Under the pieces are notes generated by a model. The model was not told the origin of the DNA and made no database searches. It worked only from the letters and a program-made list of their open reading frames with translations. A stretch of DNA of 64,000 nt, from the NCBI GenBank assembly GCA_964474825.1, contig CAYYWQ010000001.1:229609-293608 (forward strand), read 5' to 3'. Of this stretch, positions 3,834 to 55,322 are shown piece after piece (position 1 is the stretch's first letter; the number at the start of each line of letters is the position of its first letter). A program made the translations under genes and the position numbers. The stretch is from an uncultured Candidatus Saccharibacteria bacterium. Its GTDB lineage: Bacteria > Patescibacteriota > Doudnabacteria > UBA920.

Positions 3834-4673
3834 ATGGAAACACAAACAACAACACAAACTTCTGAGGGTCATTTACATTTTGGCCATTTTGGCTTAATTG
3901 CGCTTACGGCAATTTTTCTGGTTGGTGTTTCTTATATGAAAAACCCAGACATGTTTAATTTGCATCCGGCTAGTTTAGTAGTTGATCCTTCTTTAGTGCC
4001 TAGGTATTACGCTTACGTTACCCCTGAGGAATTCCAGCAGCCCTTAGTGGCCGGTGCAAGTACCGAGGGGCCCGGGGTAAGCATTATTAATGAAGACGGC
4101 AGCGTTACCCCGGTAGATACAGGCGAAGTTTTGGGCATGTCTACCCAGGACGTACAATTGTCCTTAGACCAAATTAGTGTAAATGAGATTTCTGACAGCG
4201 ATGCGGCAATAAAAGCCTATTTCGCTCAGGCCGAAACAGCAGAAAGTGGTTATATTAATAATGCCGATTTTCAAACAGCTTTAATTTCCGCCAACCAAAA
4301 TCAAATTAATAATCAGGCAGAAAAACTTGAGGCGATAATAACCAGCCTGCAAAAACTTTCAGTGCCCCAATCCTTGGTTCGCTTGCAAAAATTAAAGATT
4401 GCACAATACCAAGCGGGTATTGGGTTGCTGCATAATTTTACCCAGGCAGACAGCAACCCGCTTTTAGTGGGGCAGTACCTAGACCAGTTTTTAAAATCCC
4501 AACAGGATATGGACAACGAAATGTTGGCCGCTCAGCAAAAATATGGAATAGATTTAGGAATTAGCTTAGCGGGATCTAGCTTGAATACTTTGCCCCAAGA
4601 AGGCAATCAAACCGGAGCCGACGAAACTTATATGTTTGACCAAACTTTAACTGACTTAAATGCACAGCAATAA
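3834..4673 (+). CDS. hypothetical membrane-anchored protein
   Basis: single N-terminal TM (GLIALTAIFLVGVSY), Q/N-rich extracytoplasmic part. Confidence 0.45.
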   Translation: METQTTTQTSEGHLHFGHFGLIALTAIFLVGVSYMKNPDMFNLHPASLVVDPSLVPRYYAYVTPEEFQQPLVAGASTEGPGVSIINEDGSVTPVDTGEVLGMSTQDVQLSLDQISVNEISDSDAAIKAYFAQAETAESGYINNADFQTALISANQNQINNQAEKLEAIITSLQKLSVPQSLVRLQKLKIAQYQAGIGLLHNFTQADSNPLLVGQYLDQFLKSQQDMDNEMLAAQQKYGIDLGISLAGSSLNTLPQEGNQTGADETYMFDQTLTDLNAQQ

Positions 4674-6630
4674 ACTTCAAAAATTAGTCGCTTGTTCTTT
4701 ACTCGCCATACAACTTTTAATGTTGCCTGGTTTGGCTTTGGCCCAAATAGGGGACGTGCCTACGAGCAACAGCGCTTTGGGTCTTGGGGGTATTGGGGGT
4801 TACACCGCAAATAGCTTAGCGACAGGCATCCTGGAAGGCGCTAATAAATCCAACTCTGCTTGCCTGGTGCCGGAGAAAGCTTTTTTTGCCGGAGATAAAG
4901 GGGTTTCAATAGGCATGGGAGGACTGGCCCTTATTAGCGGAGGCGCGAGCGTTCAAGAACAGTTAATTGCAAAAATTACCAAAATAGAAGGGTTTAAAGG
5001 TTGCCATGGAGCGCAATTGGAAATAGTTAAAGCTGTTCTTGCGCCTAATACTTTTATTTCCAACAGGAAGCAATTGTTAATTGACGAAATTACCAAGCAA
5101 ATTATGAGCCTGGAGGCCCGGGAAGAACCGCTTCTAAATCAGCTTAAGGTTGCGCAGCAGGGTTTTTGGAAAACTTTGGTTTGGAATGTTTTAATAAAAA
5201 CCACCAAAACCATTTCCATTAACATGGTTAATAAAATGGTAAAAAATTATAAAATAAATAATTTTTCCAAATATGCGGACGCAGTTGCCACCCAGGTTTA
5301 TGACAGCGAATTTATTTTAGACAACTTTAGCGGCGCTAAAGCCGACCAAATGCTTGTCAGATCATTTTTGGCAAACCCAGCCCTTCAGGGACAAATGTCA
5401 CCCTCGGTACTTCGCTATACCAACAACGCTTTGGGTTTTGACCCTAAACAGCTTAATACAAATGACCCGAATTTTTACCAGAAAATGTATTCAGCAGGCA
5501 CCGGCGGAAGTAATCCTTTTGTCCAGCAAATTGCTTTTGCCAATTCCGCTCAAATGATCCATTCCAAGTCTTTAGTCACTGCCCAGGCGGAAATTGCCCA
5601 AAGCAGCGGTCTTAAGACTCCTCGCAACTGCCAAGGGGTAATGTCCCAACAAAAATCTTTGGACCAGTCATATAAATTGGTAGACAACCAATTGGCCAAC
5701 CGCCAGGCTTTGTTTGATGATTTAGTTAACGCTAAAAAAATGGGTTATCCGGTAACCGACAGCGACCTGTCCAAAGCGCAAACTGATTTGGCTAAAGCCC
5801 AGAACCAATGGGACGCTTTGCCTAATTCCGTGGAAAGCCCTATTGTAAAAATTTGTGAAGGCATTGTTTCTCCTCCAAGTTTAATTAACAAAGGCATTGA
5901 CCAGGCCTTTAACGCCCTTGGACAGAATGTAGGCACTTACAATAATAATAACTTACCATTCTTTATAACCTTTATTACTGACGTAGCCAATAAAATTACC
6001 AATGACATGATTTTTGGCGGCGGCGTTAGCGGTTCCAGTATTTTGCAGGAAAACATTGGCAACCTTTCCCGGGCAACCAGCTTGGTAACCAGTGGGGTTC
6101 AGGCCAATTTGGAAGTTACTCAAGGTAAAAATATTACAATAACATCAAGTTTGGACGATGTAAGCAGCGACGGCAAGTCCGCTACCTTTAGCCTGCAGTG
6201 GGATGCCAGCGGCGTTGGAAACGCTACAGCCATTTCTATTAGCGGACCCGGTGTCCCGGCAAATATCAACGGAGCCATGCAGCCAAAGTTAAGTGGGGCT
6301 GTGGCAATAACTGTCGCGGTGGGAGCACAGTATACTTATACTGTGACTGCCTACGGCAAAAGTAAAGCCGATGTTTTGGCAACTTTAACCAAGAAAGTGG
6401 ACGCTACCCGCACTGCCGTAACACCTCCACCTCCGGTGACAACTCCTCCTGCCGCCGCAACGGTTCAGTGTGAGGAAGAGTACGGCAGTCTAGATGCTTG
6501 CATAGAGCATCCCGGTAACGACCCAGCTTGGTGTGCTTCTATTTGCGGCAGCGTTAACGGCGCATTCATTTCCAAAGCGCCGTTAAGCACCCGAGGTCCT
6601 ATGTCAGAGCTCCATCCAAGAGGGGAGTAA
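4660..6630 (+). CDS. hypothetical large secreted protein (656 aa)
   Basis: clear signal peptide ...LLMLPGLALAQ; overlaps upstream gene by 14 nt; Pro-rich segment then Cys-containing C-terminal tail. Confidence 0.55.
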   Translation: MHSNKLQKLVACSLLAIQLLMLPGLALAQIGDVPTSNSALGLGGIGGYTANSLATGILEGANKSNSACLVPEKAFFAGDKGVSIGMGGLALISGGASVQEQLIAKITKIEGFKGCHGAQLEIVKAVLAPNTFISNRKQLLIDEITKQIMSLEAREEPLLNQLKVAQQGFWKTLVWNVLIKTTKTISINMVNKMVKNYKINNFSKYADAVATQVYDSEFILDNFSGAKADQMLVRSFLANPALQGQMSPSVLRYTNNALGFDPKQLNTNDPNFYQKMYSAGTGGSNPFVQQIAFANSAQMIHSKSLVTAQAEIAQSSGLKTPRNCQGVMSQQKSLDQSYKLVDNQLANRQALFDDLVNAKKMGYPVTDSDLSKAQTDLAKAQNQWDALPNSVESPIVKICEGIVSPPSLINKGIDQAFNALGQNVGTYNNNNLPFFITFITDVANKITNDMIFGGGVSGSSILQENIGNLSRATSLVTSGVQANLEVTQGKNITITSSLDDVSSDGKSATFSLQWDASGVGNATAISISGPGVPANINGAMQPKLSGAVAITVAVGAQYTYTVTAYGKSKADVLATLTKKVDATRTAVTPPPPVTTPPAAATVQCEEEYGSLDACIEHPGNDPAWCASICGSVNGAFISKAPLSTRGPMSELHPRGE

Positions 6631-6654
6631 AAATAAATATAAGAATAGTTAAAC

Positions 6655-6685
6655 AAAAATCGGCGTTGTCGCCGATTTTTGTTTT
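6655..6685 (+). terminator. rho-independent terminator after 656-aa gene
   Basis: aaaaatcggcg-ttgt-cgccgattttt hairpin followed by T-run. Confidence 0.6.
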
Positions 6686-6767
6686 ATGCAAATTTTCGTA
6701 TAAGAAAAGCTAGTTTAAAAAATTATAATAATTAGCAATGAACTTTAAAAATTTTTGTAACTATGCT

Positions 6768-6805
6768 ATCCTTACATAACTGACGGCCGTCAGTTATGTA
6801 AGGAT
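6768..6805. promoter_or_regulatory. 38-bp perfect palindrome (candidate operator) upstream of PaaX-like gene
   Basis: atccttacataactgacgg|ccgtcagttatgtaaggat is exactly self-complementary; shares 18-bp core aactgacggccgtcagtt with the palindrome at 7365-7388. Confidence 0.55.
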
Positions 6806-6825
6806 GTGAATTAACGTAAAAGTTT

Positions 6826-7350
6826 ATGTCAAAAAAATACGGAACCCTGTCGGGAGAATTTTTAAAAATTTTGGGTAAGGCGACCGGATTTTTTACCTGG
6901 CCCATTGAAGGGACTGAAGGTTGGCGCTACGAACAACTATATGGTTCCAGAAGGAATTTTTTGAACACAGTCTCGCATTTAAAAAAGCGAGGGATGGTTA
7001 AATCAGTCAGCCGTCAAGGTAAAAATTTTTTGGAATTAACTTCCAAAGGACAATTGGAACTTCTTTTGCAAAAAGCTGTTGTTAAAACAGTGGCTAAGTG
7101 GGACGGTAAATGGAGAATGGTTATTTTTGACATTCCCGAAGATGCCAGGGACAAAAGGGATACCTTAAGGAGACTTTTAAAAACCAATCAATTTGTAATG
7201 TTGCAGGCCAGCGTGTTTGTTAGTCCCTTTCCTCTTAACAGGGAAGCCGTGGATTATTTAAAGCAAACAGGGCTAATTGCTTTTATAAGATTTGGAAAAA
7301 TTGAAGAACTTGATGATGATCGTGATTTAAGGAAAAAATTCAAGTTGTAA
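6826..7350 (+). CDS. PaaX-like (PaaX_C-type) small transcriptional regulator
   Basis: WDGKWRMVIFDIPEDARDKRDTLRRLLKTNQFVMLQASVFVSPFP resembles PaaX family central/C-terminal region; 174 aa. Confidence 0.45.
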   Translation: MSKKYGTLSGEFLKILGKATGFFTWPIEGTEGWRYEQLYGSRRNFLNTVSHLKKRGMVKSVSRQGKNFLELTSKGQLELLLQKAVVKTVAKWDGKWRMVIFDIPEDARDKRDTLRRLLKTNQFVMLQASVFVSPFPLNREAVDYLKQTGLIAFIRFGKIEELDDDRDLRKKFKL

Positions 7351-7364
7351 ATATTAAGTCATAG

Positions 7365-7388
7365 CCAAACTGACGGCCGTCAGTTTGG
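7365..7388. promoter_or_regulatory. 24-bp perfect palindrome downstream of PaaX-like gene / upstream of VirB6-like operon
   Basis: ccaaactgacgg|ccgtcagtttgg; same 18-bp core as 6768-6805. Confidence 0.55.
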
Positions 7389-7500
7389 TGAGGATGATTG
7401 CGGATTTTAGAATTGTTGGCACTTGGGGAAAAGTGGTAAAATTGACTTTAATCAAAATAAAGCCTGTCAATCACAGGATTTTGTGTTTTATAAATATTTG

Positions 7501-7509
7501 TGGTATAAT
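7501..7509 (+). promoter_or_regulatory. extended -10 promoter element (TGgTATAAT) upstream of 7631 gene
   Basis: tggtataat about 120 nt upstream of the TTG start. Confidence 0.3.
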
Positions 7510-7630: not shown

Positions 7631-10600
7631 TTGCGGAAATTAAAACAAAAATTTAAAACTTCTGTTTTTAGCCTGGTTTTGATTATCATCCTGCTTTCCG
7701 GTCTTGGTGGTTTTTTTGTTTATCCCAAAACTGCAAAAGCCGCAGGGAATGTTTATAATTTCAGCGATATTGTGCTTACAGAAACTGTTGAGGTTTCCAA
7801 TAACCAAAACGGACCTTGGAATAACGTAAATTTTGTACGGGTAGGAAAAGACTCTAATTTTTACGTGAAAGTTACAATTCAGGTGGCTTCTTTGAAGAAT
7901 ACAAACAATCAGGTTGTAACCAGCTTTGATACAAAAAATGACTCGGTGTTTAATCCCGGTTGGTACAACACCAATTTTTCGATTAGTGGAGTAGGGTCAA
8001 GTTTTGTGGCTAAGGTTACCCAGGAACAAGCCGCGGCAATTAAGCAAAAAATAGAAGCAGGAGCTGATCCTAAAACCGTTGGGGGAATCCCTTGTTTTAA
8101 AGAAAGTATGACCAGCGGTGGAGGGGCGGCTTTAAACGGTGTGGTAATTGTAGGGGCGAGTGCGGCGGTGGCCTTGACTGGTGGGGCGGCTTTAAGCGCC
8201 GGAGCCCTGGCTGTTGGAGGTAGTGCTGTTGGTACTGCTGCAGGTGCTGCTGTGCAGAATGTGGCACTTTTTATAGCTATAAACGGCAGTACAGTTGCTG
8301 GCGGCAGTACAGCAGCAACGCTTGCTACTTTTAGGCCTGCTGCGGCATCCGATTATATAAAGTGCGACGGCCCAATTGGAGGCAGTAATCAACCCGGACC
8401 TCAAAGTCCGGGTGCTGTTCCGGTCGGTGGCACTTTATTTTCTAGCACTGTTACCGTTCCCGCGACTGCGTATGCGAATTTGGGACTTTCACAGCAGGCG
8501 GACGCAACAAAAGAATCCAGCACTCAGCCGGTGAATGAATTTTTTGTGGTACCGAACGTTTATTTTTCATCCTGGTTGGGGGTGAGGAATGACTTTATGT
8601 CAACCATTGGAGCAGGGAAGAGTATTTACGTCCAGCTTTATGATACTCAGGAGAATGCGAATAAACACGCAAGCGAAGCAGTGCCGTCTTCGGTTCCAAA
8701 TAACGGGAGCAACACCGGAAGCGGTACTAATCTTGGCGATGGAGGAAGCGGACTTCTTGGTTTGATTAACAAAATTATTGGAATTATTGTTGGTATTCTT
8801 TCTGAGCTGGCCTACTTAATATTTTACACACTGCTGGCGCCAATGATCCAGGCCATGCTTTCCATTCATACATACTCCGACACTTTTGTCGGGGTAATTT
8901 ATCCTGCCTGGATTGTAGTGCGCAATGTTTGCAATATTATTTTTATTGTCGCCATTATTGCCATAGCCATGGGTACGCTTTTCCGCGTGGAAAGTTACCA
9001 GTATAAGCACCTGTTAGTGCAGTTAATTATTGCCGCCCTGCTTGTGAATTTTAGTTTGGTTATTGGCCAGGCGATTTTAGGGATTGCGGACACCGCGCAG
9101 AACCAGTTTTTACCCAACAATGTGGAAGTTGTTCGCTCCCTTGGAAAGAATTTAATGGTGCAGTATCGCCCCGACGTCTGGAATATGGATTTCGCCGGGC
9201 ACGGTTATTTTAGCGACACTGTAAAGCAGTTGTTCTTTTTAGCTATGTCCTTGGGAAGCTTGGCGGTGTTTGCGGCCATAGCGGTATTTTTGGTTATTAG
9301 GATTGTGGCCTTGTGGATATTCCTTATGATTTCCCCCATAGCTTACGTGGCAGGAGTATTGCCCACTACCGCCAAATATAGGTCTGAATGGTGGAGTAAT
9401 TTTATTAAGTATGCTTTTTTTACGCCCATTATGGCGTTCATGCTTAACATTGCAGCTTACATTGCCAATATGCAGACCAACAATGGCGTGCTTAATTATC
9501 TTAAGGTGGACCCGAGTACTTTAGGCGGTAGTAATTTTGCCTCTTTTGTGGTACAAATTTCCAGTAATGTAATTTTATTGGTCTTCCTCTTTGCCGCCAC
9601 AATGGTAGCGGAAAAAATGGGCATCTACGGCGGCGACATAGTCTCTAAAGTTGGCAAACAAGGTTTGCTTGCGCCTTTTGCTGGCGCCAAGTTTTTGACT
9701 AAAGACGTTGCTGGGGGATGGGTAAAGAAGCATTACGATAAAAAGACTGAAGGTCTCGCAAGCGGGAAAATATTACCAGGACTTTTTGGAGACAAAGGAG
9801 GTCAGTGGCTTTCCCGACAGCTTTTTAAAGTTGCTCACCCTATTACCACTGTTGGAAAAATAAGGGAAGAAAGCAAGGAAGAGAGAGAGTTATATAAAGC
9901 ACGCGTGGAGGCAGCGGCAGTAAAAGTTGCCAGAAAACAGTTTGGTTGGAGAAGAATGACAGAAGACCCGATGTATCTTTTTGATGAACATAAAGGAAAG
10001 GAACTTTATGAAAAAGAAGAAGGTCAATGGTCGCCTAATGAACAAGTCAATGTGGGTAAAATAAATAGGCTGGCCGAAGAATCTAAAAAAGGGGACTTAC
10101 GTGCTCGTGTAAAGCTTAAATTTGCCTTGGCAGAAGCTTTTAGAAACAGGAACCTGAACGAAGTTATGGGAGGGGAGAATGGATTAGCTGCTAGGAATCC
10201 AGAATTATTTGGAGGCCCTCTTAATTATAATGCAGACAATATAAGGTTTTTTTTCCAGCAAATGACCGAAGGCGGTTATTTAGACGAAGATTTTACAAGG
10301 GAATTTTTAAAAGACATCGGTAGAGATGCATATGAGAAAGGTGACTTCAATGGAGCCGAGCTCGTTTACAGCGACCCAAAAACAGGCCATCCTCATATGA
10401 TTCACATGGCTCCGCGGGACGAGGAGGGAAATTCTTTACCTGTCGGCTGGAATGATTATGTACAAAAAAGAGAAGAATTTATTAGAGATGCTGATGCGAT
10501 CGGTAAACGAAATGCTGTTACCGTAGGTAAAGCAAAAGCTGTCACAAAAGCCACTAAAAATCTTGGTCCTGGGGCAACTCCAGCCCAAATTGCCGCAGAA

Positions 10601-11260
10601 GCTGCAATTCTTGAAGCAGACGAAATAGAAAGAGCGACGGGTCCGGAAATAGCAAAAGCACTTAAGGCCTTGGAAGATCCGTACGCTGAAAGTAATCATG
10701 ATTATGCGAATTCAATGCATGCGGAACGTGGTAGGAATTATATGAAGATTAACCTGTCAAAGAAAAAAGGTGGTCAGCAAATGGATATGTTCCATGACTC
10801 TCTTATTAACGTTGGAGTAGAAGATGGAGAAGCTGTTTTAAGTGATGCGGGTACCCAAGCATTAGGTAAAATTGACGAGCAGTCAATCTACGCTTTGCTT
10901 AGGGACAACATGGCTCCCAAAACTAAAGATAAGTTTAAGCTTTATACCAAAGGGATTGCAGTCAATGAGGCAAAAACTATTGCAAAAATTCAAAATCAGT
11001 TAACTAAGGTGGTAAGAGATGAGAACCGCGAAAAAGGAGTATTTATGACAGACCCCGAGATTGCCAAGCAGGTGGAATCAAGAACAAATTTATGGCTTGC
11101 TGCTTCGGCAGGTTTGGCTTCTGGTGAGCAGGCTCAAACTGTCATGCGAGCATTTGAACTTAAAACAGATCCTAATACTAATATTACAGAAACTTTAGCA
11201 GAAAGGGATTTAAGAGTTAGGGCAGAGTTGATTAAAAAGATTAAAGACAGTCAAAAGTAA
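7631..11260 (+). CDS. VirB6/TrbL-like polytopic membrane protein with Gly/Ala-rich extracytoplasmic region and ~500-aa charged C-terminal domain
   Basis: TTG start; signal/TM; 6-7 TM helices between aa ~380-690; organisation resembles VirB6/TrbL giant variants. Confidence 0.5.
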   Translation: MRKLKQKFKTSVFSLVLIIILLSGLGGFFVYPKTAKAAGNVYNFSDIVLTETVEVSNNQNGPWNNVNFVRVGKDSNFYVKVTIQVASLKNTNNQVVTSFDTKNDSVFNPGWYNTNFSISGVGSSFVAKVTQEQAAAIKQKIEAGADPKTVGGIPCFKESMTSGGGAALNGVVIVGASAAVALTGGAALSAGALAVGGSAVGTAAGAAVQNVALFIAINGSTVAGGSTAATLATFRPAAASDYIKCDGPIGGSNQPGPQSPGAVPVGGTLFSSTVTVPATAYANLGLSQQADATKESSTQPVNEFFVVPNVYFSSWLGVRNDFMSTIGAGKSIYVQLYDTQENANKHASEAVPSSVPNNGSNTGSGTNLGDGGSGLLGLINKIIGIIVGILSELAYLIFYTLLAPMIQAMLSIHTYSDTFVGVIYPAWIVVRNVCNIIFIVAIIAIAMGTLFRVESYQYKHLLVQLIIAALLVNFSLVIGQAILGIADTAQNQFLPNNVEVVRSLGKNLMVQYRPDVWNMDFAGHGYFSDTVKQLFFLAMSLGSLAVFAAIAVFLVIRIVALWIFLMISPIAYVAGVLPTTAKYRSEWWSNFIKYAFFTPIMAFMLNIAAYIANMQTNNGVLNYLKVDPSTLGGSNFASFVVQISSNVILLVFLFAATMVAEKMGIYGGDIVSKVGKQGLLAPFAGAKFLTKDVAGGWVKKHYDKKTEGLASGKILPGLFGDKGGQWLSRQLFKVAHPITTVGKIREESKEERELYKARVEAAAVKVARKQFGWRRMTEDPMYLFDEHKGKELYEKEEGQWSPNEQVNVGKINRLAEESKKGDLRARVKLKFALAEAFRNRNLNEVMGGENGLAARNPELFGGPLNYNADNIRFFFQQMTEGGYLDEDFTREFLKDIGRDAYEKGDFNGAELVYSDPKTGHPHMIHMAPRDEEGNSLPVGWNDYVQKREEFIRDADAIGKRNAVTVGKAKAVTKATKNLGPGATPAQIAAEAAILEADEIERATGPEIAKALKALEDPYAESNHDYANSMHAERGRNYMKINLSKKKGGQQMDMFHDSLINVGVEDGEAVLSDAGTQALGKIDEQSIYALLRDNMAPKTKDKFKLYTKGIAVNEAKTIAKIQNQLTKVVRDENREKGVFMTDPEIAKQVESRTNLWLAASAGLASGEQAQTVMRAFELKTDPNTNITETLAERDLRVRAELIKKIKDSQK

Positions 11261-13926: not shown

Positions 13927-14367
13927 ATGCAATTTTCCGTACCACAATTTACTGAGGTAGAAGATAAAATAATTGGCCCGCTGACTATTAAGCAGTTTGG
14001 TATTATTTTTGGCGGCGGAGTTTTCGTGTTTATTGCTTTCACTCTTACAAAGAGCATGGCAGTCTTAATTATTTCCGGTTTGTTTTTTGGCTTGCCTACC
14101 TTAGGCTTAGCTTTTGGCAAACTAAACGGCAGGCCGATTTATAACATGCTAGGTAATTTGTTGGCATTTATTACCAGTCCTAAGGTTTTAATTTTCCATA
14201 AACAGGGAGTGCTAGCATCAGACAATAAGCAGAAAGACGAGGCGCTGGGAGCAAAAACAGCTGCCGATGTTAACATGAGCACTGCCGCCACCTCGCGTCA
14301 AAGACTTACCGAAGTCAATAAACTATTAGAAAAACAGGCGGCTGAGGAGAGGGAATTATTGAAATGA
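13927..14367 (+). CDS. VirB3/PrgI-like small two-TM membrane protein
   Basis: 146 aa, two adjacent TM helices (GIIFGGGVFVFIAFTL / AVLIISGLFFGLPTLGLAF); position just upstream of VirB4. Confidence 0.4.
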   Translation: MQFSVPQFTEVEDKIIGPLTIKQFGIIFGGGVFVFIAFTLTKSMAVLIISGLFFGLPTLGLAFGKLNGRPIYNMLGNLLAFITSPKVLIFHKQGVLASDNKQKDEALGAKTAADVNMSTAATSRQRLTEVNKLLEKQAAEERELLK

Positions 14368-15142: not shown

Positions 15143-16987
15143 ATGTCAATTTTTAAAATAAAAACCGAAAAAGAACTGGAAGAAAAAAAATCCATGCTCC
15201 AGGAGGCGGAGCAGGAGCGTGATTTAAGCAAGAAAATTACCGATGTTGAAAAGACTTACCGTGAGGGTCTTACAACCTTGAAAGATTTAATTGCCCCGGC
15301 GAGTCTGAAGTTTGAAAGCTCTTATTTTGAATTAAACGGCAAGTTTGCACGAAGCTTCTTTGTTTTGGCATACCCCAGGTTCCTTTCCAGTAACTGGCTG
15401 TCTTTTATTATACAGGCCGAAGGCGCTCTGGATTTGTCCATGTATATTTATCCAATAGACTCCGAAACAATTTTAAAAAAGTTAAAATCTAAAGTCGGGG
15501 AGCTGGGCAGCCAAATGTCCATTAACCAGGAAAAAGGTGGCGTACGTGACCCAATGCTGGAAACGGCCTATAAAGACGTGGAAGGTTTACGGGACCAGCT
15601 TATGCAAGGTACTGAGCGTTATTTCCGTTTTGCCCTGTATTTTACTATTTACGCGGACGACTTAAAGGAATTAGACAAGAACTCTTCCACTTTGGAATCC
15701 GCTTTGGGCGCTAAACTTATTGTTACCAAGCGGGCAATAATGCAGACCCAGCAGGGTTTTAATTCCACTTTGCCTTTTGGTAAAGACGAGCTGGATGTTG
15801 GTAACAACATGAACACCAGTCCGCTGTCTACATGTTTTCCTTTTGTTTCCTCTGACTTAACGGGTAACGATGGTATTTTATATGGCATTAACCGCCACAA
15901 CAACAGTTTAATTCTGTTTGACAGGTTTGCCATGGAAAATGCCAACTCCGTAATTTTTGCCAAATCCGGCGCCGGGAAATCTTACGCGGTTAAACTGGAA
16001 GTACTGCGGCATTTAATGATAGGCACGGACGTGGTAATTATAGACCCGGAAAACGAATACAAACATTTGGCCGATGCCGTGGGTGGCACGTACTTGAGCG
16101 TTTCGTTAAATTCCAATTCCCGTATTAACCCGTTCGATTTGCCCGTTGCAATAGAAGGGGAAGACAATGCTGATGTTTTGCGCTCGTCGGTAGTTAACTT
16201 GCTTGGTTTGTTCAGTTTAATGCTCGGCAAGTTAAACCCAACGGAAGAAGCTTTAATGGACAAGGCCATTTGGCAGACTTATGCCAAAAAAGACATTACC
16301 GCGCAATCGGATTTTAAAACCGTAGAATATCCGACAATGAACGATTTAATAGAAATCCTGCATGGTATGGTGGGCGCGGAAAGTTTGGCTCAAAGGTTGA
16401 CTAAATATACCGAAGGAACTTTTGCCGGGTTATTTAACCAGCCAACCAATGTGGTTTTAAATAATCAGTTGGTGGTTTTTTCCATCCGAGATTTGGAAGA
16501 TGAATTGCGGCCCATTGCAATGTATATTATTTTAAACCATATTTGGAACATTGTGCGCAGTGAGCTAAAAAAACGCATTTTGGTGGTTGACGAAGCCTGG
16601 ATTATGATGCAGCACGAAGACAGCGCGCGGTTTTTATTTGGTATTGCCAAACGCGGGCGCAAGTATTATTTAGGTCTTACCACGGTAACCCAGGACGTTG
16701 CCGACTTTATGGCCAGTCCATACGGCAAGCCTATTGTAACCAACTCTTCCATCCAGCTGTTGTTAAAACAATCGCCGGCGGCTATAAATATTATTGCCGA
16801 CACCTTTTTCTTAACAGAAGGTGAAAAATATTTGCTTTTGGAAAGCGAAGTTGGGGAAGGTATTTTTTTTGCCGGGCTTAAGCACGCGGCAATTAAAATA
16901 TATGCATCTTATGTGGAAGACCAAATTATTACCACCGACCCAAAACAGCTTTTGGAAATTCAGGAAAGCCAGGAAAAATTAAGCTAA
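15143..16987 (+). CDS. VirB4/TrbE/CagE-family T4SS ATPase
   Basis: Walker A FAKSGAGKSYAV, Walker B ILVVDEAWIMM, conserved RKYYLGLTTVTQDVADF block. Confidence 0.85.
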   Translation: MSIFKIKTEKELEEKKSMLQEAEQERDLSKKITDVEKTYREGLTTLKDLIAPASLKFESSYFELNGKFARSFFVLAYPRFLSSNWLSFIIQAEGALDLSMYIYPIDSETILKKLKSKVGELGSQMSINQEKGGVRDPMLETAYKDVEGLRDQLMQGTERYFRFALYFTIYADDLKELDKNSSTLESALGAKLIVTKRAIMQTQQGFNSTLPFGKDELDVGNNMNTSPLSTCFPFVSSDLTGNDGILYGINRHNNSLILFDRFAMENANSVIFAKSGAGKSYAVKLEVLRHLMIGTDVVIIDPENEYKHLADAVGGTYLSVSLNSNSRINPFDLPVAIEGEDNADVLRSSVVNLLGLFSLMLGKLNPTEEALMDKAIWQTYAKKDITAQSDFKTVEYPTMNDLIEILHGMVGAESLAQRLTKYTEGTFAGLFNQPTNVVLNNQLVVFSIRDLEDELRPIAMYIILNHIWNIVRSELKKRILVVDEAWIMMQHEDSARFLFGIAKRGRKYYLGLTTVTQDVADFMASPYGKPIVTNSSIQLLLKQSPAAINIIADTFFLTEGEKYLLLESEVGEGIFFAGLKHAAIKIYASYVEDQIITTDPKQLLEIQESQEKLS

Positions 16988-17070
16988 CGATTAACGATTG
17001 ACAATTAACAATTAACTTCTGATTTTGGGGTTAAACGTTAATCGTGAATTGTTAATTGTTTTTTTATTTT
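16988..17070 (+). terminator. hairpin/heptad-repeat structure with T-run after VirB4
   Basis: AACGATT/AACAATT heptad repeats and inverted GTTAATC/GTTAATT copies followed by ttttttatttt. Confidence 0.4.
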
Positions 17071-20864: not shown

Positions 20865-20942
20865 AAGTATATAGTAGTTAGTAGATAGCCTATTGTGGTT
20901 AGATTTTCTAACTACTATTTGCTAAATACTAACTACTTTTTT

Positions 20943-22274
20943 ATGCCTAAATTATCTGTAATTTTTGTTTGTACTAATTGCGGGTACCGTACTCCCCGTT
21001 GGCAAGGTAAATGCCAGCAGTGCGGGCAATGGAACACTTTGGAAGAAAAGCAGGAAATTAGAAGCGGGAAACAAGGTGCCTTAAGGGCCGCTTCTGAACC
21101 TGTTAATTTACAGGGAGTGCAAATTTCTGACCGGCAGCGTTTTGTAACCGGCATAGGGGAGTTCGACGAGGTTATTGGCAGCGGTATAGTGCCGGGCAGT
21201 TTGATTCTTCTTGGTGGAGATCCTGGTATTGGTAAATCCACTTTAGCTCTTCAGCTAAGCATGAAAATGCCGGACGGAGACGTTCTTTATGTTAGCGGCG
21301 AGGAATCTGTCCACCAAATTAAACTCCGTGCCAGCCGTATAAACCAAAAACATGAGTTGGATGTTTTAGCGGAAACAGACTTAGAAACAGTTTTGTCTAC
21401 CGTGGAAAGCCAAACACCCAAATTGGTAATTATAGATTCCGTGCAGACAATGTACAGCGAATCAGCCAGCGGCGTAGCGGGCGGAGTTGCGCAGGTGACA
21501 AACGCTGTGCAGCGCATTATGCGCACGGCTAAACAAAACCACATATCGTTCATTTTAATAGGACATGTTACCAAAGAAGGCTACTTAGCTGGTCCAAAAA
21601 CTTTGGAACATATGGTAGACACGGTTTTGTATTTGGAAGGGGAGCGGTTTGCGAGTTTCCGCATTTTGCGATGCGTTAAAAACCGTTTTGGCACTACTAA
21701 CGAAGTCGGCGTGTTTGAAATGCAAGGGGAAGGTTTAGTAGAAGTTAAAAATCCGTCGCAATTATTTTTGGGCGAAGAAAGCATAAAAGCTTCGGGCAAC
21801 GTGGTTACTTCTATTTTAGAAGGCAGCCGCGCGTTACTTTTAGAAATTCAGGCGCTTACATCGGCCTCTAACTTTGGTTATCCTAAGCGCACTACCGCTG
21901 GATTTGATGCTAACCGTTTACAATTACTTACCGCAATTTTAAGCAAACGAGCGGGCCTTAATTTGTCCAACCAGGACATTTACATAAATGTTGTAGGCGG
22001 AATAAAAATAGACGAACCTGCCGCGGACTTGGCTGTTGCTATGGCCATAATTTCTTCTTTAAAAGATATTGTTATTGAAAAAACAGTTATTATTGGTGAA
22101 CTAGGACTCTCGGGTGAAGTCCGTTTTGTGCCGCAACTGGAAAAAAGGATTAAAGAAGCGCAAAAATTAGGTTTTGAAAAAATAATCTGCCCCAAAACAA
22201 AAATCGCCGGCAAATTCGGCGACGTAGAAATAATTGGTGTTAGGACACTTGGGGAAGCTATAAAAAGTTTGTAG
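20943..22274 (+). CDS. radA: DNA repair protein RadA/Sms
   Basis: N-terminal C4 zinc finger CTNCGY...CQQCGQW, Walker A GGDPGIGKSTLALQ, Lon-like C-terminal domain; ATG at 20943 preferred over upstream ORF start. Confidence 0.9.
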   Translation: MPKLSVIFVCTNCGYRTPRWQGKCQQCGQWNTLEEKQEIRSGKQGALRAASEPVNLQGVQISDRQRFVTGIGEFDEVIGSGIVPGSLILLGGDPGIGKSTLALQLSMKMPDGDVLYVSGEESVHQIKLRASRINQKHELDVLAETDLETVLSTVESQTPKLVIIDSVQTMYSESASGVAGGVAQVTNAVQRIMRTAKQNHISFILIGHVTKEGYLAGPKTLEHMVDTVLYLEGERFASFRILRCVKNRFGTTNEVGVFEMQGEGLVEVKNPSQLFLGEESIKASGNVVTSILEGSRALLLEIQALTSASNFGYPKRTTAGFDANRLQLLTAILSKRAGLNLSNQDIYINVVGGIKIDEPAADLAVAMAIISSLKDIVIEKTVIIGELGLSGEVRFVPQLEKRIKEAQKLGFEKIICPKTKIAGKFGDVEIIGVRTLGEAIKSL

Positions 22275-27834: not shown

Positions 27835-28090
27835 TTGTTACAAAGAAAAGGTTTATTAAACAATAAAACGGCAAATTGTCAAAATTGATTAAAATATCGC
27901 CGCAAAGACGGCGATATTATTCTAACATATTTTAAATAATTCTAAGTGATTTTTCTAAAGGTAAAGCTTTTAAACTATCTGCCCCTCGACTTCGCTCGGG
28001 ACACTCGACTCGCTTCAATTATAGGATGGTTGAGGCCTTTTAAGGGCCGAAACCACGAGCAAGCTTTGATGTTAGTCAAAGCGAGTCGAG

Positions 28091-28182
28091 TGGCGGAGAG
28101 GGGGGGATTCGAACCCCCGAAAGGTTTTGACACCTTTACCGGTTTAGCAAACCAGCGCACTAGGCCTCTATGCGACCTCTCC
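28091..28182 (-). tRNA. tRNA-Ser (anticodon GCT), long variable arm, CCA encoded
   Basis: GGAGAGGTCGCATAGAGGCCTAGTGCG-CTGGT-TTGCTAA-ACCGG...extra arm...GGGGGTTCGAATCCCCCCCTCTCCGCCA. Confidence 0.85.
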
Positions 28183-28381
28183 GGGTGAATGTAATATTTA
28201 AGAATTGCTTTGTCATTTTAACAAAGTTTGGAATTTCTGACAATGCTCCTTTGTTTGAAATAAATCACCCCGCGAAGCCTACACATGCTTTGTGTAAACT
28301 TCGCGGGGCTGTCGTTTTGCGTTAACGATAACGTTGCCTGCCTAGCCGGCAGGGAGTATGCGATTAACGTACGTCGGAGGA

Positions 28382-29623
28382 CTAGACCGAGTAGGTCCGG
28401 CCGCGGTGCTGTCCGAGAAGGATTTGCACCAGCCGGTGGGCGATCAGTTCGTGGAGCGTGAGCAGTTCACGGTTGGCCGCGGTAACGGCTTCGGCATCGT
28501 GCGGATCGGTAACGCCGGCGCCGCCGGCCTTCAGGGCGTCGGTGGCTTCCTTGATGATCGGGTCAGAGATGACTTCGCCTGCCATCTCCCATAGCGTGAT
28601 GAAGCGGTCCACGGCGCTCGGAAAGCTGACCTTGAAGACGCCGTAGTTGCTGGTGGTGCGTGGCGGTTTGAAATCGAGGTTGAACGGGCCGTTGTAGCCG
28701 TGGCTGCGCAGCAGCACCAGCACGTTCAGCCAGTCGAGCGGATTCACCAGCCCTACCGCGATATCCACATCGTGCTTCAGGCGGTAGCCGTCGTTGATGT
28801 CGAAGTGCCACAGCTTGCCGCACAGGAGTGCGCGAGCCAGCGATGCCCGGGGCGCGGCGCCCCACATCAACTCATGCAGGTACTCGGGGTTGAGCCCTAC
28901 CATCTCCGGATGCGTCAGCAGGCCTGAGGAAATGAAGGCCAGCATCGCGTCGCTGGTCGGAAGCAGGATCTCGGCCTGCGGTTCGAACGGCTTGGCCTCC
29001 ATACAGTGCTTCAGGGTGGGGTTGCCCTTTTCCTTTGCAATCTGGATATCGGCCTCGCAGGCGTGGTTCAGGGCGTCGGCGTACCAGCGAAGGGTCTGTG
29101 TCTCGTCGATCGCGCCCTGGACGTAGTAGCCGAGGGAACCGGGCCAGTAGACGGCGAACTGCGCGCCGAGCTCGTGCCCGATGTGAACCGTATTGGCCAG
29201 CCGGAACTTAGCGTACTCCCTTACATCTGGAGCTTCCGCCGCCGGACTGCCGGCGAACACCGCGTGATAGAACGTGTCCGTGGTGACCATCGAGCACTTG
29301 ACGTCGTGCTTCTTGAGGCATGTCTTGATGTGCTCAATCGCCATCCACTGCCACTCTTTTCCCAGGTGCTCGGTGGGGATAACGTCCGTGTCATGAGTGG
29401 TCCAGTAGCCGATTCCGATTTCGCCGAAATTGCGGATAGCCTCCTCAAATCCCACGGGTCCGCGGGTGGGGGCGTGGAATAGGGCGTCGCCTTCGTAAGC
29501 AGCGGCCCATTGGGGCCCGGAGATAAAGTATTTCCGGCGCGTTTCGGGGGAATAACCACCCCCGCACGCTTCCATGAGCCGATTAATCAGGGATTGCTGT
29601 TCGTTCACAGGGACTGGTTGCAT
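28382..29623 (-). CDS. xylA: xylose isomerase, class I (actinobacterial/Thermus type), in ~62% GC island
   Basis: long collinear similarity to class-I XylA: FHDTDVIP, AIEPKP-like EAKPFEPQ, ILLPT, GLNPE, HFDINDG, exact DFKPPRT; codon GC3 very high against AT-rich flanks. Confidence 0.85.
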   Translation of the reverse strand: MQPVPVNEQQSLINRLMEACGGGYSPETRRKYFISGPQWAAAYEGDALFHAPTRGPVGFEEAIRNFGEIGIGYWTTHDTDVIPTEHLGKEWQWMAIEHIKTCLKKHDVKCSMVTTDTFYHAVFAGSPAAEAPDVREYAKFRLANTVHIGHELGAQFAVYWPGSLGYYVQGAIDETQTLRWYADALNHACEADIQIAKEKGNPTLKHCMEAKPFEPQAEILLPTSDAMLAFISSGLLTHPEMVGLNPEYLHELMWGAAPRASLARALLCGKLWHFDINDGYRLKHDVDIAVGLVNPLDWLNVLVLLRSHGYNGPFNLDFKPPRTTSNYGVFKVSFPSAVDRFITLWEMAGEVISDPIIKEATDALKAGGAGVTDPHDAEAVTAANRELLTLHELIAHRLVQILLGQHRGRTYSV

Positions 29624-29815
29624 TTTCTTTTTCTTTCTCCTAAATGAAAAACCTCCTTTGAGCCTATATATCCGGCCTTCAAAAGAGGTTCGGCCAAGAA
29701 AACAATCTTGGCGGATTTATTAGTTTACAATTAAAAAAGCCTTTTGTCAAAGGCCAAAATTGGTTCAAATTAATAAAACTCATACTTAAATACTTGAGAA
29801 TGTAAGGATGAGTTT

Positions 29816-30580
29816 TTAATCCCTTGCAATGGTAAGGCACCAGACGCTTTTGGCACCGTTGCGCTTTAAGACTTTTGCGGCTTCCAGTAAAGTTGATCCT
29901 GTCGTGGTTACGTCGTCCACTAAAATAAGATTTTGATTATGGACATCAGCATCTTTTTTTAAAGAAAAGGCGTTAGCCACGTTTTTTATGCGTTGGTCTT
30001 TTTTTAAATCTTTTTGGGTTTTAGTAACCTTGTTTCTCGTAAGCGCATCAAGCATACCCAGATTCAATTCTTTGCTAAGTGTGTGGCATAGAATTTCCGC
30101 TTGGTTAAAACCGCGCCAGCGTTTGCGGCGGGGGTGGAGGGGGAGGGGAATTAATATAGGCTTCTGATTATTATCATGGTTGAATAAAAAAGAATAGTCA
30201 GCTTCAATTTTTTTGGCCAAAAGATTCCCCAAGACTTCAAAAGTTCCTGGAAGGAAATGGTACTTTCCCTTAATAACTATTTCCGCCACATTTTCATCGC
30301 GATAATTTAATACGGAAATTAAACCGTCCGCCGTATGCGGGGTTAGGCAACCCGGATGTGTAAAGCCGGAAATAGAAGGCTTTTGGCAAATAATGCAGTG
30401 TTGGTAATCCAGCCTTGCCAAAAGTGCTAAGCAATCGGTGCAAATAAAACTACCCTCCTTTTCGCACACAAGGCAGCGAATAGGAAAAATCGTGTCTAAA
30501 ACAAAAGTTTTAACATCTTTAGAAAAAGGTTTTATAAAAGTTTTATACATTAATTTAATTTTAACATAAAAACCCCGCAA
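29816..30580 (-). CDS. comF: ComF-family protein (competence protein F, PRTase fold)
   Basis: N-terminal Cys4 zinc finger (CLVCE...CTDC / CIICQ), PRTase motif LILVDDVTTTGSTL. Confidence 0.75.
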   Translation of the reverse strand: MRGFYVKIKLMYKTFIKPFSKDVKTFVLDTIFPIRCLVCEKEGSFICTDCLALLARLDYQHCIICQKPSISGFTHPGCLTPHTADGLISVLNYRDENVAEIVIKGKYHFLPGTFEVLGNLLAKKIEADYSFLFNHDNNQKPILIPLPLHPRRKRWRGFNQAEILCHTLSKELNLGMLDALTRNKVTKTQKDLKKDQRIKNVANAFSLKKDADVHNQNLILVDDVTTTGSTLLEAAKVLKRNGAKSVWCLTIARD

Positions 30581-33258: not shown

Positions 33259-33353
33259 TACAGAAGGCTACGGAAAAATGCACTACAGATGCCTACAGAA
33301 CCTGACATTTTTTCTGTAGGCATCTGTAGTGGGCCTTCTCTATAGTTCTGTAG
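33259..33353. promoter_or_regulatory. symmetric array of six CTACAG half-sites including 20-bp perfect inverted repeat (candidate operator) between clpC and recX
   Basis: cactacagatgcctacagaa (33281-33300) / ttctgtaggcatctgtagtg (33312-33331) perfect IR with 11-nt spacer; outer ctacagaa (33260) / ttctgtag (33346). Confidence 0.5.
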
Positions 33354-33357
33354 TTTT

Positions 33358-33876
33358 ATGTGGAAACCCCAAAGCAAAACCAAAGAACCTGACAATATAG
33401 AAAAAGCATACGAGTATGCCGTGTTTTTGCTGTCCCTGAAGCTACGAACCATTGGGGAAGTTTTAACTAAGATGAAAGGCAGGGGATACGGCGAGGCCGT
33501 TATTTCAGAAATTATTGAGAGATTAAAAAGCCAGCACTATTTGGACGACCAAAGATACGCGGAAATTTATTTGGAAAACTTAAAAATTTATAAAACCTTT
33601 GGCTATTACGGCATTAAGAAAATGTTTATGGAGAAAAAGTTGCCACAGGAGCTTATTGAAAATATTTTAACCGAAGGACTTAGTCTTTCTGAAGAAACAA
33701 AAATTGCCAAAAGATTTTTGCAAAAACAAGGGATTATGCCTAAAGAAAAATCAGATAGTGATGAAATGCAATATCGAACCTTTGATGAAGAAGCCTCAAA
33801 AGCCAAACAAAAACTCGCCCAAAAATTAAAGGCGAGAGGGTTTAGGGGAGACGTAATAAGTAAGTTATTGTTTTAG
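33358..33876 (+). CDS. recX: RecX-family regulatory protein
   Basis: AYEYAVFLLSLKLRTIGEVLTKMKG...LDDQRYAEIYLE three-helix repeat pattern of RecX. Confidence 0.65.
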   Translation: MWKPQSKTKEPDNIEKAYEYAVFLLSLKLRTIGEVLTKMKGRGYGEAVISEIIERLKSQHYLDDQRYAEIYLENLKIYKTFGYYGIKKMFMEKKLPQELIENILTEGLSLSEETKIAKRFLQKQGIMPKEKSDSDEMQYRTFDEEASKAKQKLAQKLKARGFRGDVISKLLF

Positions 33877-35477: not shown

Positions 35478-35680
35478 TTTATTATTCCTTTTATTTCATC
35501 CCGGCTGCTTTTATGGCCTTTCGGGAATGATTAAGATTGTATATTTATTATAGCACTTTTTAGTCTAAGTGGGTCAATAGTAAAATTGGCTTGACATGAT
35601 TTTAAACATTTGTTAAACTACAAATACCGCTTTAGTTAACTAAAGCGGTCAAAGTAAAGTTATAGTGTTAGGAATTTTTT

Positions 35681-54738: not shown

Positions 54739-54783
54739 GTCAATTGTTAAATGTCAATTGTTAAATGTCAATTGTTAAATGTC
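54739..54783. repeat. 3.2 tandem copies of 14-bp unit GTCAATTGTTAAAT between mreC and mreD
   Basis: perfect copies at 54739-54752, 54753-54766, 54767-54780; upstream TTGAC x3 in inverse orientation. Confidence 0.7.
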
Positions 54784-54788
54784 CTCAA

Positions 54789-55322
54789 ATGAAGTATTTA
54801 ATTTACCTTTTGCTTATTATTGTACTCTGCGGAGTGTCAGTTGGGCTTTCGCCGCTTATAAACATACGCGGCCAAGTTCCGCAGCTGCTTTTTTTACTGG
54901 CCTTTATTTGGTCTTTGGACCGAGCCGGCTGGGATTTTTTATTTGTGGCTTTTATATCGGGTTTATTTTTGGATTTTTATACAGGCAGTTTTGTTGGGAC
55001 GTTTTCCATGCCATTAATAACGGTCTGCTTGGTATTCCATTTTATAATTGAAAATTTTTTGGCTTTGGAATTAAGCCCTAAATTTTTGGCCGCGCTTTTA
55101 CTCCCGGCGCAAATTCTATTTGGTACGGTTTACTTTTTTTACTCCTGGTTGCTTTACAAAATGCATTTATGGCCCATCCTTCCGGACGCTAAAATTTTAG
55201 CGGAAGGCTTTATTATTTCTTTTTTTTATAACCTACTTTTCCTTTATCCTATTTTTTCTCTTACAGATTATGTTCGAATGCTGGTAAGGCGCTATTTTGA
55301 GCGTGAATTTAAAGTTCGCTAA
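54789..55322 (+). CDS. mreD: MreD-like polytopic membrane protein
   Basis: position after mreC, 5 TM helices, ~178 aa. Confidence 0.5.
   Translation: MKYLIYLLLIIVLCGVSVGLSPLINIRGQVPQLLFLLAFIWSLDRAGWDFLFVAFISGLFLDFYTGSFVGTFSMPLITVCLVFHFIIENFLALELSPKFLAALLLPAQILFGTVYFFYSWLLYKMHLWPILPDAKILAEGFIISFFYNLLFLYPIFSLTDYVRMLVRRYFEREFKVR

Follow-up and report, generated by a model that had tools for sequence, protein, structure and literature searches.

Results

Two palindromes bracket a short PaaX-type gene

The window analyzed here is a stretch of 64,000 nucleotides from contig CAYYWQ010000001.1 of an uncultured member of the Patescibacteriota (assembly GCA_964474825.1), and the element under study is a small gene lying between two perfect palindromes. 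The gene (6826–7350, + strand) encodes a protein of 174 residues with a predicted winged helix and a PaaX_M/Cas2-like domain. A spacer-less perfect palindrome of 38 bp, composed of ATCCTTACATAACTGACGG and CCGTCAGTTATGTAAGGAT, occupies positions 6768–6805, and 20 nt separate its end from the ATG at 6826. On the other side of the gene the stop codon ends at 7350, and a perfect palindrome of 24 bp (CCAAACTGACGG and CCGTCAGTTTGG, 7365–7388) begins 14 nt further on. Both contain the same 18-bp core, AACTGACGGCCGTCAGTT. The sequence itself and a palindrome scan revealed both palindromes, and a repeat finder returned the 38-bp one as well, which confirms the description of the pair given in an earlier note on this DNA. 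The upstream palindrome, whose position matches that in homologous loci, is proposed to be an operator, and the downstream palindrome a second one.

The palindromes are real and lie far beyond chance. Even with three mismatches tolerated, AACTGACGGCCGTCAGTT has only these two sites in the window, where 0.02 matches would be expected; two matches were obtained in none of 100 shuffles. The half-site 8-mer, ACTGACGG, does not occur again. The sole other spacer-less perfect palindrome in the window with arms of at least 11 nt is an unrelated 24-bp sequence, ACCGCTTTAGTTAACTAAAGCGGT, at 35626–35649. To the right of the 18-mer the two copies at the gene are still similar (TATGTAAGGATG versus TTGGTGAGGATG), as if the downstream copy were the longer upstream element in decayed form.

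No T-run directly follows either palindrome, the sequences just 3′ being GTGAATTAACG and TGAGGATGATTG, and a terminator scan called neither of them, reporting 6651–6684 and 7463–7477 instead. The earlier statement that they are not simple terminators thus holds. The genome had also been described as AT-rich, which is too strong, as the window is only moderately so (39–54% G+C, mostly 40–46%). Avoidance of CGGCCG through restriction was considered and rejected, because the window has 24 matches to this hexamer against 13 expected.

The bracket is a property of the gene family

A word-indexed search returned 582 homologs of the 174-residue protein, from Patescibacteria wherever the organism was named, and an exhaustive profile search gave a family of 3343 clusters at 50% identity (E ≤ 1e-10). 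Plasmid and phage collections contained no homolog, and a scan of viral contigs gave one match, at a contig end. DNA was fetched around close homologs, and a metagenome scan added 80 loci.

At 75 loci with both flanks available, the 220 nt upstream of the gene were compared with the region around and after the stop codon. An exact shared string of at least 12 nt was found at 52 of the 75 loci, compared with 16 of 600 mismatched pairs, and one of at least 14 nt at 41 of 75 compared with 3 of 600. Between positions −4 and −14 from the centre, arm identity was 0.85 for copies of the same locus, compared with 0.41 for copies from different loci. The 27 kb beside family genes contained 50 perfect spacer-less palindromes with a length of 18 bp or more, and the remaining 277 kb of the same loci contained 7, making their density beside these genes 73-fold that elsewhere. 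The centre was CGGCCG in 38 of these 50 and CGATCG in 7. The general half-site consists of an A/T-rich tract, about three variable bases and then (A/G/T)CGG at the centre, and the 24-bp palindrome of the window corresponds to the ±12 unit of the family.

Individual loci illustrate the arrangement. At locus L035, whose protein is 63% identical to that of the window, AAATCACGGCCGTGATTT lies ~135 nt before the ATG, and a perfect 38-bp palindrome with the same core as this upstream copy lies 1 nt after the stop codon. At L036 and L038, (T/G)CGCGGCCGCG(T/C) abuts TATAAT just before the ATG and recurs right after the stop codon. The CGATCG centre is typical of a more distant subfamily (L072–L119, E about 1e-30 to the profile), with examples such as TGCGATCGCA and ACGATCGT; imperfect CGGTCG centres are found there as well, and clear direct repeats of 23–38 nt often stand on both sides of the gene.

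The bracket is therefore a property of the gene family and not of the window locus. The earlier suggestion that the palindromes belong with the gene is borne out by this recurrence, in which the cores are specific to each locus.

Each gene carries its own core

Genome GCA_023484515.1 encodes two paralogs, P0005 (locus L035) and P0012 (L038), whose cores differ (AAATCACGGCCGTGATTT and TGCGCGGCCGCGCA). A single common host factor is thus unlikely, which argues for recognition of the sites by each gene's own product, as far as sequence comparison can indicate. Where the gene order is conserved, both copies have changed together. In the syntenic LemA–X–(SIS)–SecA arrangement, in which X is the family gene, the two copies carry TCACGG at L035 and TGACGG at L041 and L131. 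Likewise, between a gene for a 656-residue protein and a VirB6-like gene, they carry ACTGACGG in the window and AAATGCGG in L122. Across the family the A/T-rich flanks occur in both polarities, as an A-run before and a T-run after the palindrome and as the reverse, which is more in keeping with contacts by a protein than with terminators.

Upstream copies lie in promoters of several homologs

At L043, L045, L054, L055 and L122 the upstream palindrome lies within the spacer between TTGACA and TAnnnT. At L036 and L038 a TATAAT comes immediately after the palindrome and 8 nt ahead of the ATG. A canonical promoter, defined as at least 9 of 12 consensus matches with A2 and T6, straddles the centre of 7 of 29 upstream copies and of 1 of 28 downstream copies. 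Loci with a canonical promoter in the register seen in the window are L036, L040, L043, L055, L057, L078 and L094. In the window itself, weak promoter-like elements, CTTACA (6771–6776) and TATGTA (6795–6800), are separated by an 18-nt spacer on the + strand (6771–6800), and their assignment as the promoter follows from register with the homologs. Since upstream copies fall between the −35 and −10 elements in several homologs, autoregulation by a dimer is plausible. Of the earlier proposal that one dimeric regulator controls both its own promoter and the neighboring secretion operon, this first half can be retained.

Downstream copies are usually the longer ones, forming perfect palindromes of 36–46 bp that begin 0–44 nt past the stop codon or overlap it.

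The protein resembles a short PaaX

The label PaaX-like, given to the gene in the earlier note, is supported by a Pfam match to PaaX_M (PF20803, E 4.1e-21, 75.3 bits against a cut-off of 24). Matches to Cas2 were borderline and limited to residues ~96–146 (PF09827, 25 bits against 23.8; TIGR01573, 26.4 against 24.5), and the PaaX equivalog TIGR02277 was not reached (38.6 bits against 264.55). Pfam gave PaaX_M and Cas2 only. The PaaX N-terminal domain was not detected at the N-terminus, where Pfam gave no match, and PaaX_C is absent, the protein ending at residue 174.

An AlphaFold2 model was built on 34 homologs, with a mean predicted local distance difference test (pLDDT) score of 75.4 that is lower over the first 40 residues. 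Three helices and a β-hairpin are predicted to form a winged helix at residues 8–71 (pLDDT 42–80), with a putative recognition helix at 42–54 and the wing at 58–71. A linker helix follows the wing and leads to a ferredoxin-like, Cas2-like PaaX_M domain at residues 96–171. Foldseek comparison with the PDB ranked PaaX (8a39) at the top with 143 columns aligned and Rv0674 (3kfw) second, followed by Cas2 chains, a VapD toxin, SSV1 F-93, MarR-type regulators and IdeR; a profile search of PDB sequences agreed with this ranking. As modeled, then, the protein is a short PaaX-type winged-helix protein lacking the C-terminal PaaX domain. Structure prediction thus points to a DNA-binding fold, on which the earlier idea of a regulator had been made to depend.

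The aspartate at the Cas2 catalytic position (D102, motif FDIPE) is invariant in the family alignment. No invariant HUH motif is present in that alignment, and Pfam and NCBIfam gave no match to Y1_Tnp, HUH/Y1 or any other transposase or recombinase family. PADLOC returned weak Cas2 domain matches only. Several sources label homologs as Cas2 or PaaX, the former being probably a misnomer. The window contains no CRISPR array, its neighboring genes are not cas genes, and cas1 is not found nearby. Nor are paa genes found nearby, the neighbors being secretion-like and unrelated genes, and at other loci family genes stand beside housekeeping genes. No paper linking PaaX-like proteins to Patescibacteria was found in the literature searched.

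The secretion operon has a promoter independent of the module

The gene and its palindromes lie in an intergenic space whose left boundary is a terminator-like hairpin at 6651–6684, detected in terminator and palindrome scans (15-nt arms, 4-nt loop, flanking A-run and T-run). It follows the gene for the 656-residue protein (4660–6630). Beyond the downstream palindrome, the terminator scan and RNA folding indicated a short terminator-like hairpin followed by ATTTTGTGTTTT on the + strand (7463–7477), which is likely the 3′ end of the module's transcript. Directly after it comes the promoter of an operon resembling a type IV secretion system (T4SS; 7478–7509, + strand), with ATTTTGTGTTT and then an extended −10 element, TGGTATAAT, at 7501–7509. 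The latter had been placed about 115 nt past the downstream copy; the sequence gives 113 nt. The first gene of the T4SS-like cluster encodes a VirB6/TrbL-like membrane protein (7631–11260, + strand) with a weak Pfam match to TrbL, and its orthologs are recorded as TrbL_3. Further on lie genes for a PrgI-like protein (13927–14367), a VirB4-like ATPase (15143–16987) and a RadA-like protein (20895–22274).

In relatives the gene order from RrnaAD and DUF192 onward to the 656-residue homolog and TrbL/VirB6 is kept, and what stands between these last two genes varies. A PaaX-like gene with its own palindromes is present in the window and in L122, an MNT/HEPN toxin–antitoxin pair in L120, an 83-residue open reading frame in another contig and nothing in L121. 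This empty site has a hairpin equivalent to that at 6651–6684. The MNT/HEPN pair (nucleotidyltransferase and HEPN) of L120 is at 6502–7201 of that contig, downstream of the conserved T4SS promoter and ahead of the VirB6-like gene; such an insertion at this junction indicates that the intergenic spot collects accessory modules.

In the four genomes whose DNA was available, the T4SS promoter block, ATTTTGTGTTT-N-TG.TATAATTT, does not vary. The 656-residue homologs in these relatives (four Patescibacteria genomes) are 38–53% identical to that of the window. As judged from this comparison, the T4SS promoter is independent of the module and not part of it.

The 18-mer core in other genomes

A scan of 185,579 species-representative genomes found AACTGACGGCCGTCAGTT in 31 loci (L001–L031), all in metagenome-assembled genomes (MAGs) from several phyla. 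These MAGs are labeled Patescibacteria, Gammaproteobacteria, Verrucomicrobia, Kiritimatiellia, Bacteroidia and Bdellovibrionales. About 22 of the 31 loci have the 18-mer in the middle of an extended perfect palindrome (26–50 bp), with arms that differ from locus to locus. An identical 34-bp palindrome stands on three contigs of one Moraniibacteriota MAG, and a palindrome of ~30–36 bp is present four times in a Gammaproteobacteria MAG.

A hidden Markov model search near these loci detected a distant member of the family at L012, 23 nt away from the palindrome, and a weak match at L009, ~4 kb away from its palindrome; not every such site thus accompanies a family gene. The neighbors of solo palindromes are ordinary genes, often convergent, and many sites follow gene 3′ ends. 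Clustering of the proteins encoded around the 31 exact-core loci revealed no shared family, and Pfam analysis of ten of them gave unrelated ordinary genes.

A conserved cross-phylum element was set aside, as palindromes centred on ACGGCCGT leave an estimated five or so free core positions. With a fixed centre and A/T arms few distinct cores are available, so that exact matches may be coincidence. The exact 18-mer elsewhere may thus represent coincidence within a large class, targets of related regulators, or relics. According to the earlier note, occurrence of the motif at many unrelated sites would speak against its reading. Such sites do exist in other genomes, and the window has the two at the gene only; for the many sites elsewhere, a large class of similar palindromes is a better explanation than chance at the window locus.

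Other repeats and RNA features of the window

Two perfectly matched 20-nt arms (CACTACAGATGCCTACAGAA) separated by a loop of 11 nt form an inverted repeat at 33281–33331, 27 nt before the open reading frame at 33358–33876. Nested inverted repeats of ACGATTAAC/ACAATTAAC-like units occupy 16987–17059, between the VirB4-like gene and an open reading frame of 861 codons. At 54739–54783 a 14-bp unit, GTCAATTGTTAAAT, is repeated in perfect tandem (3.2 copies), overlapping the start of the open reading frame at 54765–55322. Local G+C peaks at 0.54 in 28001–30000, beside a tRNA-Ser gene, compared with ~0.43 elsewhere, and Rfam detected no rRNA there. Around the module Rfam gave sub-threshold hairpin matches only, and three tRNAs were found in the window as a whole.

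Discussion

A proposed autoregulated module with two operators

The explanation that we favor, with moderate confidence, is that the two palindromes and the gene would constitute one self-contained unit, an autoregulated repressor module in which two operators bracket a short PaaX-type gene. We infer DNA binding by the 174-residue protein, repression, and looping or a roadblock from the arrangement of the locus and its homologs. The winged helix would contact the DNA, and the Cas2-like domain would probably serve for dimerization. A symmetric dimer would occupy a site of ~24 bp with a CGGCCG centre, a few specificity bases and A/T-rich flanks. The first site, in or beside the gene's own promoter, would provide negative autoregulation. 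The second, past the stop codon, would most likely cooperate with the first by looping of the ~590-bp gene, or else act as a bound roadblock or insulator. With its own core for each family member, paralogs in one genome would not need to cross-talk. The unit is found at many different chromosomal positions.

Several observations weigh against this explanation. The promoter elements of the window, CTTACA–18 nt–TATGTA, are weak, with 7/12 consensus matches. A covariation test between protein residues and half-sites, which is confounded by phylogeny, gave no recognition-helix signal; the split between the CGGCCG and CGATCG subfamilies accounted for most of the mutual information between columns of the protein alignment and positions of the half-site, and inspection by eye of grouped alignments for a residue–base pattern was uninformative. 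L061 and L060 have two palindromes with only the centre in common. Among the 18-mer loci in other genomes, those apart from L012 and L009 that have at least ~650 nt on both sides show no family gene nearby. The outer arms, beyond ~±12, are perfectly symmetric, which a dimer on the inner site does not explain, and this suggests selection for a hairpin or cruciform, or templated symmetrization. Differences between copies fall on both arms (30 symmetric against 4 one-arm, a count biased by the selection of long palindromes), so that something keeps each copy symmetric beyond the needs of a shared protein site. Templated correction of quasi-palindromes is a known mutational process. Finally, for the proposed operator past the stop codon, looping, a roadblock and an insulator are no more than candidate roles.

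Alternative explanations

Alternatively, a small cassette that is mobile, or once was, might have the palindromes as its ends or recombination sites, comparable to the repetitive extragenic palindromic (REP) sequences around a RAYT gene, the end hairpins of IS200-type elements or Xer/pdif-type modules. Solo palindromes would then be products of dispersal or excision, and the Cas2-like domain, with its invariant D102 at the catalytic position, might supply nuclease activity. Direct repeats of 18–40 bp on either side of a ~0.5-kb gene, paralogs within one genome, heterogeneous contexts and identical solo palindromes of which single MAGs contain three to four copies, often past the 3′ end of a gene, are consistent with such a cassette. 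So is the orthologous junction, where the gene is present in the window and L122, replaced by the MNT/HEPN pair in L120 and missing from L121; together with the heterogeneous contexts, this presence and absence suggests an accessory module. By analogy, the arms and 6-bp centre also resemble the core sites of tyrosine recombinases, which consist of arms plus a short centre. Nevertheless, identical proteins occur in one context only (P0118 on 22 contigs and P0057 on 8), and recent transposition was rejected after identical proteins had been looked up for differing contexts and none had been found. The LemA–X–SecA synteny is kept among members ~55–63% identical to the window protein. The protein gave no HUH/Y1 match and no domain of a transposase or recombinase, genes for an integrase or recombinase are absent beside the module, plasmid and phage collections gave no family matches, and the 64-kb window has no further palindrome copies. 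Cores that differ within one genome speak against a common host recombinase. A mobile or once-mobile cassette thus appears unlikely, though it is to be taken seriously; the earlier idea that the pair marks the ends of an inserted cassette fits the junction, while active mobility does not agree with the single context of identical proteins. It is rather doubtful that the family represents an undescribed class of semi-autonomous Patescibacteria elements, in which the Cas2-fold protein would recognize, and perhaps cut or pair, its own palindromes. To a similarly small degree we would credit, within the same proposal, symmetry kept by hairpin-templated repair with solo palindromes as dispersed or excised footprints. 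No greater weight is given to its last part, a non-HUH analog of REP/RAYT with a Cas2 fold working outside CRISPR.

Control of the T4SS-like operon, the other half of the earlier proposal, would have a dimer use the upstream palindrome for autoregulation and the downstream one to control the operon. The downstream copy does lie on the T4SS side of the gene, 93 nt ahead of the promoter's −35 element, L122 is a second genome with a PaaX-like gene at the same junction, and the downstream neighbor is co-directional in 44 of 64 loci. These same-strand neighbors, however, include Cys-, Arg- and Met-tRNA synthetases, SecA, FtsZ, ComEC, UvrC and sugar nucleotidyltransferases, so that the bracket occurs whatever the neighbor, and the remaining 20 of 64 are convergent. 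The T4SS promoter block is unchanged in L120 and L121, both of which lack the gene and the CGGCCG palindrome; no half-site is present at the T4SS promoter; and the distance from palindrome to promoter is not kept, at ~93 nt in the window and ~170 nt in L122. The comparison with relatives that the earlier note had called for accordingly finds the gene at the junction in L122 but not in L120 or L121, where the promoter is retained. We consider this form of control quite unlikely, and the module as a dedicated T4SS regulator is not supported. It is even more doubtful that the palindromes act as nucleic-acid structures, the downstream one as a terminator or 3′ stabilizing hairpin and the upstream one as a 5′ hairpin or cruciform, with the likeness of the copies due to duplication and gene conversion. 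The length and perfection of downstream copies at or just past the stop codon (0–44 nt), differences compensated on both arms, the hairpin predicted by RNA folding at 7365–7388, the frequent location of solo palindromes after gene 3′ ends, and the A-run, GC hairpin and T-run at L041, L050 and L122, similar to bidirectional terminators, agree with structure. Against this, the window palindromes have no T-run and a separate terminator-like hairpin exists at 7463–7477, the T-run-then-A-run polarity at L046, L062 and L063 cannot terminate, and upstream copies in clear promoters, with −35 on one side and −10 on the other, do not enter the transcript as a whole. Rfam gave no family match, and structure alone leaves the 73-fold link to the gene and the conserved CGGCCG centre unexplained. 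An artefact of assembly or sequencing, or chance, can practically be dismissed. Every 18-mer match in the genome collection is from a MAG, and short-read contigs break inside the 38-bp palindrome; two independent Logan contigs of the window locus end within it (L033:1–22 and L034:1–22). De Bruijn assemblies break at long perfect palindromes, and MAGs may include too few of them. Nevertheless, the same sequence is present in independent assemblies (an NCBI contig of 1.21 Mb and two Logan runs), dozens of independent metagenomes show this architecture with differing cores, and the chance expectation is 0.02. The literature searched yielded no published sequence with the inner 12 or 14 nt of the core (TGACGGCCGTCA, CTGACGGCCGTCAG).

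Relation to known systems

PaaX, the phenylacetate repressor of E. coli, binds partly palindromic operators in promoters. PaaX (8a39) and Rv0674 (3kfw), the best sequence and fold matches, have a winged helix, as predicted for the window protein, followed by a Cas2-like PaaX_M domain. The window protein differs from PaaX in its length (174 compared with 316 residues), in the missing PaaX_C domain, in its score below the TIGR02277 cut-off and in the lack of paa neighbors, and its gene has a second proposed operator copy past the stop codon. Lambda cI between OL and OR, lacI-type repressors with O1/O2, and deoR, with sites ~600 bp apart, are looping repressors. As here, where the distance is ~590 bp, a regulator gene stands between cognate sites several hundred bp apart. 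The window sites are single long perfect palindromes rather than operator triplets, and the downstream one is not at an outward promoter; looping or a tetramer may be considered here by analogy with these systems.

In REP/RAYT and IS200/IS605 a gene of ~150–180 codons likewise lies between similar palindromes, with solo intergenic copies that often follow 3′ ends. The family studied here is distinguished from them by a protein that is not HUH/Y1, two copies only in a 64-kb window and the stable position of identical genes. Cas2 and VapD have the same ferredoxin-like fold, the aspartate of FD(I/M)P is kept, and the protein scores just above the Cas2 cut-offs. Unlike Cas2 of CRISPR systems, it is fused to a predicted winged helix, and the window has neither cas1 nor an array. 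Bidirectional intrinsic terminators also combine a GC-rich palindrome with A/T-rich flanks directly past a stop codon, whereas the window has no U-tract, the family shows both flank polarities and the upstream copy lies in promoters.

Implications

The new element, in our best reading, is a conserved and locus-specific pair of proposed operators around a short PaaX-type autoregulator gene. For the window locus, a tempting link between a regulator and the T4SS is removed as unsupported. Patescibacteria have tiny genomes in which gene regulation is almost unknown, and the palindrome-bracketed family is large. If the bracketing palindromes are cognate operators, the binding site of each member would adjoin its gene, and specificity and regulons could be read from sequence. 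The family would then provide a natural set of orthogonal repressor–operator pairs.

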